Positions 10,400-16,359 of a stretch of DNA of 64,000 bases are shown piece by piece. The translations under genes were made by a program, and so were the position numbers. Location: the IMG/VR virus record IMGVR_UViG_2534681834_000006; one strand, written 5' to 3'. The DNA is from a virus. Its lineage: Duplodnaviria; Heunggongvirae; Uroviricota; Caudoviricetes. Position 1 is the first letter of the stretch; the number at the start of each line of letters is the position of its first letter. The notes below the pieces were generated by a model. It saw nothing but the letters and a program-made list of their open reading frames with translations. It was not told where the DNA came from and searched no databases.

Positions 10400-10650
10400 T
10401 TATAGTTTCGCCGTCGTAGCAAATTCTGCGACCGGGTTTAGCAGCCTGAATACTTACGCGGACAACCGCAGATTTCCGATATTGCGGTATTTTTGTGTCC
10501 GTAAACCACGTTACGCCCGAATTATGGTGGGGCGTGATGGGGAGGCTTCGGCCTGCTGGTTTCGTAAGTGCCAGTCTGCTAACCCCGTCACGTCCTGCCA
10601 CCTGTTTAGCAGCGGGTCGCAGGTTGTTTATCAACTTACGAGGCCGTAAC
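10400..10650 (+). ncRNA. immI leader; candidate location of c4-type antisense RNA (not resolved)
   Basis: non-coding structured leader between operator and icd; exact RNA ends cannot be set from sequence alone. Confidence 0.2.
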
Positions 10651-12906: not shown

Positions 12907-13752
12907 ATGCTGGCTAAAGTCACTTTCCTGAGCTGTATAACGATGAGCGATTTTACTTTTTCTGGCTATGAATTGGCCTGCTTTGTAACACACTCCGGTC
13001 TATCCCGTAGCGCCGGGCATATCTTGTCGCAATGTGCAAATCTCGCGGCAACAACCAGTGAATACTTCATTCACAAGCCTCACCGCCTGATCGCGGCAGA
13101 AACTGGTTATAGCCAATCAACCGTCGTTCGTGCATTCCGTGAAGCTGTAAACAAAGGAATCCTGTCTGTAGAGATTGTTATCGGCGATCACCGTGAACGT
13201 CGCGCTAACCTGTACCGGTTTACACCATCCTTTTTGGCCTTCGCACAACAAGCCAAAAATGCGCTGATTGAAAGCAAATTAAAGATCTCTTCAGCGGCAA
13301 CCAAGGTTAAAGCTGTTCTCGCTAAGACATTGGCTTTATTTAATTTTTTATCCACACCCCCATGTCAAAATGATACCCCCTCCCCCTGTCAGGATGACGT
13401 GGCAATAAAGAATAAGAAGTCACAAGTTAAAAAAACAAAAAGATCAGTTTCCGGCGGTGCCGGAACGACCAGACTCAAAAAATTGACTTCATGGATCGCT
13501 GAGGCAAAAGCAAAGGCTGACAATCTGCGGTTATCCAAAAAACGCGCTCAAAAACATGAGTTCAAGCAGAAAGTAGAGGCGGCAGCGCGGAAATATGCTT
13601 ACCTGAAGGACAAGCGTTCTCCTGATATTGGCGGGATATCAAACTTCGATAATCTGCCGCATTGCATGACGGTAAACGAAGCTCTTAATGCGGTTTTAGC
13701 CAAAAATAAAGATAACGAACAATGGGGTATACCGGCAGGATTCAGAGGGTGA
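12907..13752 (+). CDS. repL: lytic replication initiator RepL
   Basis: 281-aa ORF directly after kilA in an operator-controlled operon, as in P1. Confidence 0.7.
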   Translation: MLAKVTFLSCITMSDFTFSGYELACFVTHSGLSRSAGHILSQCANLAATTSEYFIHKPHRLIAAETGYSQSTVVRAFREAVNKGILSVEIVIGDHRERRANLYRFTPSFLAFAQQAKNALIESKLKISSAATKVKAVLAKTLALFNFLSTPPCQNDTPSPCQDDVAIKNKKSQVKKTKRSVSGGAGTTRLKKLTSWIAEAKAKADNLRLSKKRAQKHEFKQKVEAAARKYAYLKDKRSPDIGGISNFDNLPHCMTVNEALNAVLAKNKDNEQWGIPAGFRG

Positions 13753-14048
13753 TAGATTGCTCTAATCTGGAGTCACCTGGCGTTTTCGGTTTGAGGTCGG
13801 AGATGCAATCTGATTTTTTACAGTTAGCGATCGCTTTTGCAGGATATGTTTGTATTGGCTTCTGTGTATACATGATCAGCCGAAAAATGCTTGTCGATAT
13901 CGACCGCAAAGAACAAGCAGAGGAGATCTTAGTATGGATTTTCTTTGGCGCGGTCTGGCCATTAGGGATCATGTTTGCTGCAACATTTCTTCTGATGTGG
14001 ATATTCACCCTTCCAGGTGATTTCTATAGAAAAAAAGCCAGACATTGA
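13722..14048 (+). CDS. small two-helix membrane protein
   Basis: hydrophobic segments IAFAGYVCIGFCVYMI and IFFGAVWPLGIMFAATFLLMWIF; start codon uncertain (alternative at ~13803). Confidence 0.4.
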   Translation: MGYTGRIQRVIDCSNLESPGVFGLRSEMQSDFLQLAIAFAGYVCIGFCVYMISRKMLVDIDRKEQAEEILVWIFFGAVWPLGIMFAATFLLMWIFTLPGDFYRKKARH

Positions 14049-14229
14049 TACAATCGTTGCGGGTGCTTGAGGCTATCTGCTTCAGGCATTACCCGAAAAG
14101 CAGATAGAAGAAAGCCCCAGATAACATTACGCGTCCTGCAAGACGCTTAACATTAATCTGAGGCCATATCTATGCTTAGCATACGTAGATTAGCCTCTTA
14201 CCGACCAAAAGGTCAAGGAGAAGCAGGCT

Positions 14230-14385
14230 ATGAAGCAGCATAAAGCGATATTAATCGCTCTGATCGTCATCTGTTTAACCGTCATTGTGACGGCACTGGT
14301 AACGAGGAAAGACCTCTGCGAGGTACGAATCCGAACCGGCCAGACGGAGGTCACTGTCTTCACAGCCTACGAATCTGAAAGGTAA
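14230..14385 (+). CDS. hok: Hok/Gef family type I toxin (51 aa)
   Basis: MKQHKAILIALIVICLTVIVTALVTRKDLCEVRIRTGQTEVTVFTAYESER; classic Hok/Gef motif; not in ORF track because shorter than 60 aa. Confidence 0.85.
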   Translation: MKQHKAILIALIVICLTVIVTALVTRKDLCEVRIRTGQTEVTVFTAYESER

Positions 14386-14397
14386 GAGACCTGGCGG

Positions 14398-14407
14398 GGA
14401 GAGATCC
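14398..14407. repeat. left target-site duplication GGAGAGATCC of IS186-like element
   Basis: identical 10-mer at 15746-15755 directly abutting the other IS end. Confidence 0.75.
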
Positions 14408-15745
14408 CATAAGCGCTAACTTAAGGGTTGTGGTATTACGCCTGATATGATTTAACGTGCCGATGAATTACTCTCACGATAACTGGTCAGCAATTCTGGC
14501 CCATATTGGTAAGCCCGAAGAACTGGATACTTCGGCACGTAATGCCGGGGCTCTAACCCGCCGCCGCGAAATTCGTGATGCTGCAACTCTGCTACGTCTG
14601 GGGCTGGCTTACGGCCCCGGGGGGATGTCATTACGTGAAGTCACTGCATGGGCTCAGCTCCATGACGTTGCAACATTATCTGACGTGGCTCTCCTGAAGC
14701 GGCTGCGGAATGCCGCCGACTGGTTTGGCATACTTGCCGCACAAACACTTGCTGTACGCGCCGCAGTTACGGGTTGTACAAGCGGAAAGAGATTGCGTCT
14801 TGTCGATGGAACAGCAATCAGTGCGCCCGGGGGCGGCAGCGCTGAATGGCGACTACATATGGGATATGATCCTCATACCTGTCAGTTCACTGATTTTGAG
14901 CTAACCGACAGCAGAGACGCTGAACGGCTGGACCGATTTGCGCAAACGGCAGACGAGATACGCATTGCTGACCGGGGATTCGGTTCGCGTCCCGAATGTA
15001 TCCGCTCACTTGCTTTTGGAGAAGCTGATTATATCGTCCGGGTTCACTGGCGAGGATTGCGCTGGTTAACTGCAGAAGGAATGCGCTTTGACATGATGGG
15101 TTTTCTGCGCGGGCTGGATTGCGGTAAGAACGGTGAAACCACTGTAATGATAGGCAATTCAGGTAATAAAAAAGCCGGAGCTCCCTTTCCGGCACGTCTC
15201 ATTGCCGTATCACTTCCTCCCGAAAAAGCATTAATCAGTAAAACCCGACTGCTCAGCGAGAATCGTCGAAAAGGACGAGTAGTTCAGGCGGAAACGCTGG
15301 AAGCAGCGGGCCATGTGCTATTGCTAACATCATTACCGGAAGATGAATATTCAGCAGAGCAAGTGGCTGATTGTTACCGTCTGCGATGGCAAATTGAACT
15401 GGCTTTTAAGCGGCTCAAAAGTTTGCTGCACCTGGATGCTTTGCGTGCAAAGGAACCTGAACTCGCGAAAGCGTGGATATTTGCTAATCTACTCGCCGCA
15501 TTTTTAATTGACGACATAATCCAGCCATCGCTGGATTTCCCCCCAGAAGTGCCGGATCCGAAAAGAAGAACTAACTCGTTGTGGAGAATAACAAAAATGG
15601 TCATCTGGAGCTTACAGGTGGCCATTCGTGGGACAGTATCCCTGACAGCCTACAAAACGCAATTGAAGAACGCGAGGCATCGTCTTAACGAGGCACCGAG
15701 GCGTCGCATTCTTCAGATGGTTCAACCCTTAAGTTAGCGCTTATG
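14408..15745 (+). mobile_element. IS186-like insertion sequence (IS4 family), 1338 bp, intact
   Basis: 23-bp perfect terminal inverted repeats CATAAGCGCTAACTTAAGGGTTG / CAACCCTTAAGTTAGCGCTTATG; single transposase ORF; 10-bp TSD; inserted in G-run/C-run hairpin. Confidence 0.85.
14457..15737 (+). CDS. IS186-type transposase (DDE, IS4 family)
   Basis: 426-aa ORF filling the IS; true start may be an internal ATG. Confidence 0.8.
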   Translation: MPMNYSHDNWSAILAHIGKPEELDTSARNAGALTRRREIRDAATLLRLGLAYGPGGMSLREVTAWAQLHDVATLSDVALLKRLRNAADWFGILAAQTLAVRAAVTGCTSGKRLRLVDGTAISAPGGGSAEWRLHMGYDPHTCQFTDFELTDSRDAERLDRFAQTADEIRIADRGFGSRPECIRSLAFGEADYIVRVHWRGLRWLTAEGMRFDMMGFLRGLDCGKNGETTVMIGNSGNKKAGAPFPARLIAVSLPPEKALISKTRLLSENRRKGRVVQAETLEAAGHVLLLTSLPEDEYSAEQVADCYRLRWQIELAFKRLKSLLHLDALRAKEPELAKAWIFANLLAAFLIDDIIQPSLDFPPEVPDPKRRTNSLWRITKMVIWSLQVAIRGTVSLTAYKTQLKNARHRLNEAPRRRILQMVQPLS

Positions 15746-15755
15746 GGAGAGATCC
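15746..15755. repeat. right target-site duplication GGAGAGATCC
   Basis: direct repeat of 14398-14407. Confidence 0.75.
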
Positions 15756-15800
15756 CCGCCACTCTTCGTGTGTCAGGTATCCTCAATGCACCCTTTCCTC

Positions 15801-15829
15801 TCCAAATAAAAAAGCTCCCGAAGGAGCTT
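15801..15829 (-). terminator. rho-independent terminator at end of minus-strand structural operon
   Basis: AAGCTCC-CGAA-GGAGCTT hairpin followed on minus strand by TTTTTTATTT. Confidence 0.7.
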
Positions 15830-15849
15830 TAAAATACAAGGGATGACTC

Positions 15850-16359
15850 TTAATCCCAATCAATCCAGTTGTAGACGATACGAAGTGACGGGCGCACAGC
15901 AGCAGTCACATCTTCGGTACTAAAGTCGATTGCATCACTGTAGATTTTGCAGTCCAACATTTCAATTGTTGTAGCAGCTTTTGTCACAGCGTTAACCCCG
16001 GAAGATTTGGATTCAGGGGTAGCAGCCATCGTGATATCAACATAGTCCTTCGCCGCAATGCGATCTTTAATGAACTGAAGAATATCGCCTTCGATAGTCT
16101 CCACGCACTGGACCTGGATTTCCCCGGAGTTACGGATTGGACCGTGCTGGTTGAACTTCACACCATTCGGACCATAGTCCTCCACATCCTCGCGGGTCAT
16201 TTCAGGAATTTGCGACGTGCGAACCAGTACGCTGATATCTTCATGGCCTGCAAAAGTGAGCTGGAATTCAGAAGATACCAGTCGTTCGCCTTTGGCCGCG
16301 TTGGCAGTATAGCGGCCCTTAATAAATTTACGGTTTCCCTTAGTGTTATTGTGCCCCAT
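15850..16359 (-). CDS. phage structural protein (possible tail tube-like)
   Basis: 169-aa ORF, last gene of operon before terminator. Confidence 0.45.
   Translation of the reverse strand: MGHNNTKGNRKFIKGRYTANAAKGERLVSSEFQLTFAGHEDISVLVRTSQIPEMTREDVEDYGPNGVKFNQHGPIRNSGEIQVQCVETIEGDILQFIKDRIAAKDYVDITMAATPESKSSGVNAVTKAATTIEMLDCKIYSDAIDFSTEDVTAAVRPSLRIVYNWIDWD

Follow-up and report, generated by a model that had tools for sequence, protein, structure and literature searches.

A hot-spot IS186 insertion that most likely disarms hok regulation on a P1-type phage-plasmid

The IMG/VR virus record IMGVR_UViG_2534681834_000006 (class Caudoviricetes) carries a toxin gene of the hok/gef family that is followed closely by a complete copy of the insertion sequence (IS) IS186. 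We analysed a stretch of 64,000 nucleotides from this record, which we refer to as the window. The window derives from a P1-type phage-plasmid (Punavirus), as judged from its P1 gene order around immI and the lytic replication genes and from its P1 RNAs, and the sequences flanking the locus share 99-100% identity with many plasmids of E. coli and Salmonella and with Punavirus records. The stop codon of hok ends at position 14385 and the IS begins at 14408, leaving a gap of 22 bp (Table 1). A first-pass annotation of this DNA had described a 51-aa Hok/Gef toxin with a 1338-bp IS186-like element inserted in a hairpin beyond its stop codon, and had proposed that the insertion probably alters or silences toxin regulation, since the 3' end of hok-type mRNAs provides fold-back inhibition. 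Every feature that it listed is present at the coordinates it gave. We find that this is a hot-spot insertion and that it is probably the regulation of the toxin, not its coding capacity, that has been disarmed, as described for the hokC and hokE loci of E. coli K-12. The locus is a new instance, on a phage-plasmid, of a known recurrent configuration, and not a new kind of system.

The toxin gene belongs to the Hok/Gef family. Its product matches the Pfam profile HOK_GEF (PF01848) with an E-value of 1.3e-21; the match scores 76.3 bits (cut-off 22) and spans positions 2-42 of the 42 in the profile. The protein keeps the segment RKDLCEV, with the Cys that is conserved in the family. Compared to the Hok proteins encoded at sites that lack the IS (empty sites), it differs only by Q4H and by I/M at residue 7, and we see no disabling change. 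The alignment to K-12 hokC/sokC spans the locus from its promoter to the hairpin. A promoter-like site lies just 5' of the start of the match to the Rfam model RF01794 at 14061, in alignment with the hokC promoter region, and the mRNA leader matches this model over its full length with 114.9 bits (gathering score 59). Rfam matches to CRISPR-DR46, ceN48 and sbrA were dismissed; they score below the gathering threshold and overlap the terminator or the leader.

The leader thus contains a structured Sok target, with a predicted Sok antisense gene in cis. We located the Sok promoter on the minus strand by homology to sokC (-35 TTGACC at 14216-14211, an 18-nt spacer, and -10 TAATCT at 14192-14187); a promoter scan missed it, the -10 hexamer matching at 3 of 6 positions. 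The predicted Sok folds into a single-stranded 5' tail and a long hairpin. Relative to K-12 hokC there is an 18-nt insertion (ACGCGTCCTGCAAGACGC, 14129-14146) that makes a small extra hairpin in the Sok-target/Sok region, so that the predicted Sok is 77 nt long rather than 59 nt. The leader ORF mok overlaps the start of hok and is shorter than in the common allele, because position 14241 is T instead of the A seen, for example, at empty site L015; the same nucleotide change gives Q4H in Hok. This T is also present in the ETEC1731 plasmid NZ_CP122822.1 (L001) and in plasmid pSvP1 (NZ_MN510446.1, L005). As far as can be judged from sequence, the promoter, the mok start, the tac element at the 5' end of the mRNA, the Sok gene and the hok ORF are all still present and look intact.

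Table 1. Coordinates of features at and around the hok-IS186 locus in the window.
Feature	Position	Strand	Basis or remark
P1 immI C4 antisense RNA	10520-10605		RNA search
hok promoter-like site, TAGAAA-16 nt-TACAAT	14027-14054	+	Consensus scan; TG before -10
hok mRNA leader, including Sok-target region	14061-14235	+	Rfam RF01794 ('sok')
tac element at hok mRNA 5' end, GGGTGCTTGAGG	14061-14072	+	First bases of RF01794 match; identical in K-12 hokC
Predicted Sok antisense RNA, 77 nt	14104-14180	-	Homology to annotated K-12 sokC
mok leader ORF, 23 codons	14172-14243	+	Translation; stop 14241-14243, 11 nt past hok AUG
hok toxin ORF, 51 aa	14230-14385	+	Translation and Pfam HOK_GEF
Left arm (GGCGGGG) and spacer of target hairpin	14393-14407	+	Left duplication copy 14398-14407
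IS186, 1338 bp	14408-15745	+	Left inverted repeat 14408-14430, right inverted repeat 15723-15745
IS186 transposase ORF, 424 aa, body and C-terminal tail in one frame	14463-15737	+	Pfam DDE_Tnp_1, 2.4e-26
C6 run setting transposase frame	15539-15544	+	C7 in K-12 IS186
Right duplication copy and right hairpin arm (CCCCGCC)	15746-15760	+	Duplication 15746-15755, arm 15754-15760
Predicted fbi (fold-back inhibition) element, CCTCAATGCACCC	15781-15793	+	Duplex with tac; just beyond the interval given in the first-pass annotation
Hairpin terminator between hok 3' end and bplB-like gene	15811-15830	.	Terminator scan; found on minus strand
bplB-like gene	15850-16359	-	Convergent to hok; annotation of homologous records

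The element downstream of hok is IS186 itself, a member of the IS4 family. It is identical to K-12 IS186A at 1338 of 1339 positions, the difference being one C missing from a C-run. Its left inverted repeat (CATAAGCGCTAACTTAAGGGTTG) is the exact reverse complement of the right one at 23 of 23 positions, and both are identical to those of IS186A. The DDE transposase contains the YREK motif (Y-(2)-R-(3)-E-(6)-K, as defined in PMC2266710) in the form YRLRWQIELAFKRLK, conserved in our transposase alignment. A direct 10-bp duplication, GGAGAGATCC, borders the IS on both sides, in keeping with the 10-12 bp duplications that IS186 makes at sites consisting of a G-run, a spacer and a C-run. The earlier description of the element as intact holds for its ends and its ORF but has to be qualified for the transposase frame, which differs from the reference (424 aa compared to 370 aa) by the 1-nt homopolymer difference.

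Because IS186 is a multicopy element and homopolymer lengths such as C6 versus C7 are error-prone, we considered whether the IS could be a repeat misplaced during assembly. This is exceedingly improbable: the duplication is clean, the same junction recurs in dozens of independent complete assemblies as well as in IMG/VR, and the insertion was published for pSvP1 from PacBio data (PMC6906374).

Excising the IS together with one duplication copy gives the reconstructed target CTGGCGGGGAGAGATCCCCGCC. The IS interrupts a hairpin with the sequence GGCGGGG-AGAGAT-CCCCGCC (that is, G4-N6-C4), whose central 10 bp form the duplication, and the restored hairpin (CCTGGCGGGGAGAGATCCCCGCCA) has a 9-bp stem. 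The consensus target of IS186 is a run of at least four Gs and a run of at least four Cs separated by three to six nucleotides. Most of the other complete IS186 copies that we examined likewise lie in G-run/C-run hairpins, which bears out the earlier suggestion that this is a preferred type of site. Uninterrupted sites with the context of the reconstructed target exist in 188 E. coli records and in 6 IMG/VR contigs. At one of these empty sites, L015, the equivalent of position 15757 is T rather than C in the right arm (CCCTGCC), which cuts the C-run to three. Some empty sites with a shorter C-run, such as L015, may be poorer targets for IS186.

Folding predictions indicate what the insertion separates from the hok mRNA. 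In the minimum-energy fold of the restored mRNA, the first 12 nucleotides (GGGUGCUUGAGG, which is tac) pair with CCUCAAUGCACCC at 15781-15793, for any 3' end tried past 15793 and with pair probabilities of 0.9-1.0. This duplex (-20.6 kcal/mol) is the best available to tac anywhere within 14386-15800, and when the 85 nt downstream were shuffled 2000 times, the same energy was reached only twice. On the strength of these predictions, 15781-15793 is the fbi element of the locus. The IS places it 1348 bp further from the body of the hok mRNA than it is in uninterrupted loci, so the mRNA has no contiguous 3' fbi. A duplex search found no substitute partner for tac within the IS, where the best duplex is -15.2 kcal/mol. 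At 5 of 7 tested ends between 14407 and 14800, the first 12 nucleotides of IS-bearing transcripts are instead predicted to fold locally onto nucleotides ~20-34, which is the same local 5' fold that restored mRNAs adopt when they are trimmed before fbi. The terminator scan found no intrinsic terminator on the plus strand between the hok stop codon and the transposase gene, so transcription of hok probably continues into the IS. The earlier proposal that the insertion acts through the 3' end of the mRNA is supported.

In the model developed for plasmid R1, pairing between tac and fbi closes the full-length hok mRNA to both ribosomes and Sok, and slow trimming of the 3' end opens it (PMC9841398). 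Applied to the window, this suggests the following sequence of events. IS186 would have recognized the G4-N6-C4 hairpin that hok loci have ~22 bp past their stop codons, and inserted there by simple insertion with duplication of the central 10 bp. The hok transcript would then enter the IS without reaching fbi, and its 5' end would take up from the start the 'open' fold that normally results from 3' processing. Such an mRNA would be accessible at once to Sok and to ribosomes, and, as long as the cell retains the plasmid, Sok would bind it and it would be degraded. Being open from birth, it could not accumulate as the reservoir that post-segregational killing requires, so no stable inert mRNA would be left to kill plasmid-free segregants. 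The effect on mRNA fate and killing is what we infer from the anatomy, and we regard disarmed regulation as the probable outcome.

Several points weigh against this interpretation. Its structural case rests on thermodynamic prediction; transcripts ending at 14520 and 14700 have different predicted partners for tac, and a long transcript could find still other partners in vivo. The SNP that truncates mok here might by itself alter hok translation, apart from any effect of the IS. In K-12, gef (hokC) continues to be transcribed despite its IS186 and remains under the control of its antisense RNA (PMC3562002), so a locus that is 'disarmed' should not be equated with a silent one. The insertion is carried by about one-quarter of P1-type plasmids, which fits neutrality equally well. 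If the insertion were neutral, hok/sok would still work as an addiction or defence module, its transcripts ending or being processed inside the IS and Sok plus mok being sufficient for control. The intact promoter, mok start, Sok and hok ORF, the behaviour of gef, and the persistence of the insertion among P1-type plasmids all agree with this. It is nevertheless difficult to reconcile with the R1 model, in which inert storage of the mRNA needs tac-fbi end-pairing for which the IS offers no replacement, and with the K-12 loci that have the same lesion: the fbi of gef/hokC is considered to be disrupted by IS186 (PMC3562002), and K-12 hok loci with IS elements are described as inactivated or non-functional (PMC7232551, citing Pedersen & Gerdes 1999). 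We judge a neutral insertion to be decidedly unlikely.

The insertion is not confined to the window. We searched complete E. coli genomes with junction queries of 1108 nt, requiring the P1-specific upstream flank, and found that 60 of 248 such sites are occupied by IS186: the IS is oriented as in the window in 16 records and the other way round in 44, and the remaining 188 records are empty. Among 11 further occupied P1-type sites that we sampled from several backbones, the IS is at the same position in all 11 and the 10-bp duplication is identical in 10, the remaining site having a 1-nt difference in one copy. In total 13 IS186 copies were inspected in this sample, including those at K-12 hokC and at a prophage hok. 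By exact pattern, IMG/VR contains 7 occupied and 6 empty P1-type sites. In the phage-contig loci that we fetched, a hok ORF ends toward the IS at 15 of 23 complete IS186 copies (a somewhat inflated proportion, as 7 of these loci had been fetched by the hok junction pattern itself), and at least five variants of the hok hairpin are represented. Comparison of these sites makes it certain that IS186 has hit hok hairpins independently, because the insertions are in different hok loci and in different hairpin variants. What our survey adds is that IS186 in phage DNA lands mainly in the hok 3' hairpin, and that approximately one in four P1-type plasmids is occupied.

We attribute the recurrence to the hok hairpin being a preferred target of IS186. 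Alternatively, it could reflect selection for disarming hok, if losing the hair-trigger of the toxin benefits the cell or the plasmid, and not target preference only. Occupancy is high in P1-type plasmids and phage contigs, and three K-12 hok genes have IS elements that adjoin rather than interrupt them. One of these elements, in the work of Pedersen and Gerdes, is reportedly IS150, which has a different target preference. Yet nearly all sampled copies share both the precise insertion point and the 10-bp duplication, and several IS186 targets in phage contigs that are not hok genes also have the form of at least four Gs, six nucleotides and at least four Cs. Target specificity alone therefore explains the position, and we consider a role for selection unlikely.

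The two orientations of the IS need not mean separate insertions, as they could arise if one original copy was inverted in situ or was re-inserted. The IS186 on NZ_CP122822.1 (4209-5546) is base-identical to the one in the window and its flanks are 100% identical, with the same duplication, but the IS is inverted. Both sequences have a rare hok allele (H4) and the rare C6 form of the IS, so we rejected orientation alone as proof of independent insertions; for this pair, the shared sequence points to an IS that was inverted in place, or excised and inserted again, rather than to a second, unrelated insertion. The perfect 23-bp terminal repeats could have served an inversion, although 23 bp is very short for homologous recombination of this kind. 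As an account of the two orientations at the site in general, inversion or re-insertion is somewhat doubtful, since independent hits are in any case established by the different hok loci and hairpin variants.

The closest known counterpart is K-12 hokC (gef)/sokC. It belongs to the same Hok subfamily, with a gap of exactly 22 bp between its stop codon and IS186A, a 10-bp duplication (GGATCACTCC in strain MG1655) centred in a GGCGGGG-N6-CCCCGCC hairpin, and a displaced fbi (PMC3562002). It differs from the window in being chromosomal, in having the IS in the opposite orientation relative to hok and with a C7 run, and in a 1-nt difference that joins mokC in frame to hokC. K-12 hokE/sokE, which is also chromosomal and belongs to another Hok subfamily, has IS186B 21 bp past its stop codon in the same orientation as in the window, at a GCGGGG... 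site. The parallel with K-12 that the first-pass annotation had drawn is therefore accurate. The R1 hok/sok system has the same components as the window: a promoter, tac, mok overlapping hok, an antisense Sok, a GC hairpin past the stop codon, and pairing of fbi with the 5' end. However, the R1 mRNA is contiguous whereas fbi is cut off by the IS here, and mok has 23 codons in the window's allele.

Another IS186 insertion site, that of SaiSree et al. 2001, resembles the window in having a GC-rich G-run/C-run target that was hit repeatedly (cited in PMC3861542 and PMC3045373). There the insertions reportedly disrupt a promoter, whereas in the window the IS separates a 3' regulatory element from its mRNA. 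At that site too, IS186 is said to have inserted in both orientations.

Plasmid pSvP1 has IS186B at the same locus as the window, with the same hok allele and the same 10-bp repeat (given on the other strand as GGATCTCTCC in PMC6906374), but in the opposite orientation and with a C7 run. The paper that reported it does not mention hok and names the IS as the cause of the loss of rlfA, rlfB and pmgF (PMC6906374). Since 188 IS-free plasmids have the same module of small ORF and hok, and since the duplication around the IS is clean, the replacement of this module and the insertion of the IS are separate events. From these comparisons we take the module swap (13722-16359) to predate the IS and to be independent of it.

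In homologous records the gene order is icd-ant-kilA-repL-(small ORF)-hok-bplB, so the hok locus lies between repL and bplB. The small ORF between repL and hok (108 aa; 13722-14048, plus strand) is called 'hypothetical' or 'membrane domain protein' in these records, and a Pfam search with it gave no match. In a variant of the backbone, seen as records with 88% coverage in the junction searches, the region of this ORF is deleted. Elsewhere in the window, the P1 immI C4 antisense RNA with its a1/b1 targets (10400-10605) and three phage tRNA genes between 32256 and 34690 (Asn-GTT, Thr-TGT and Met/Ile-CAT) confirm the P1-type backbone.

The single nucleotide by which the window's IS186 differs from IS186A changes the reading frame of the transposase. 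In K-12, where the run is C7, the InsL protein is 370 aa long and a C-terminal tail lies in the +1 frame; in the window, where the run is C6, body and tail are fused into 424 aa. The NCBI pipeline labels C6 copies 'frameshifted'. The extra 54 residues are homologous to the C-termini of distant IS4-family transposases of 425-440 aa (BLASTP with the tail alone gives E-values of 1e-11 and 3e-7), with which they share the motifs S-x-WR, AI-x-G and E-P-R-R-R. Nine closer relatives (54-85% identity) have an annotated ORF that ends in ...CCC TGA. Seven of them lie on contigs long enough to show the tail running on in the +1 frame as far as a stop codon inside the right inverted repeat, and in the other two the contig ends with the tail frame still open.

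We also examined 79 loci, sampled without selection from species-representative genomes, of which 71 were scorable. The tail is in the +1 frame in 57 of them, as in K-12 IS186, and it is fused to the body in 13; one locus has it in the +2 frame, by a weak match. There are 27 non-redundant +1 junctions, and in 25 of them an in-frame CCC is followed by U–UGA in 13, UGG in 6, UCA in 3, UGU in 2 and UCU in 1. The junction in E. coli IS186 is CCC_AGA. CCC_UGA is a documented site prone to +1 shifts; Listeria phages make use of it, and at E. coli pheL its efficiency is 15% (PMC5009743).

These patterns lead us to lean, if only slightly, toward the idea that transposases of the IS186 clade need a conserved +1 shift at an in-frame CCC-U to join their catalytic body to a conserved tail of ~55 aa. 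A review of the IS4 family lists 'absence of frameshift' among its hallmarks (PMC2266710), and our literature search found no explicit description of frameshifting in IS186 or IS4. Earlier detection at the database level is possible, as the GeneTack survey contains unnamed +1 clusters among DDE_Tnp_1 transposases (PMC3711429).

The C6 run of the window may reflect either a genuine fusion of the frames or an error in homopolymer length. In IMG/VR we found 0 copies of the C6 form and 41 of the C7 form, and the exact 424-aa protein is encoded on 130 public contigs, including the finished genome of an O104:H4 strain. Two other IS186 copies adjoining hok (L009 and L013) are 1338 bp long with a C7 run, so their 1-nt deletions are elsewhere in the element; they are also annotated as frameshifted. 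These deletions may be genuine decay or homopolymer errors in long reads.

For the hok locus, the value of our analysis is mainly a tidier annotation. P1-type hok genes labelled 'type I toxin HokD' may be regulatory cripples in approximately one-quarter of cases. The IS186 that adjoins them is a hot-spot insertion and did not bring about the rlfA/rlfB/pmgF replacement that was attributed to it in pSvP1. The empty and occupied alleles form a natural matched pair for examining the contribution of fbi outside plasmid R1. The observation on the transposase frame matters more, if it is true. The annotated 370-aa InsL would be the unshifted product and the full-length protein would be ~424 aa, and the C6 copy in the window would be a version fused at the DNA level and possibly deregulated. 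There would then be programmed +1 frameshifting in a family that is said to lack frameshifting, and a utilised site of the CCC_UGA type in elements of E. coli. The reference annotation of a classic E. coli IS would describe a truncated product, and it is the copies labelled 'frameshifted' that would carry the complete frame.

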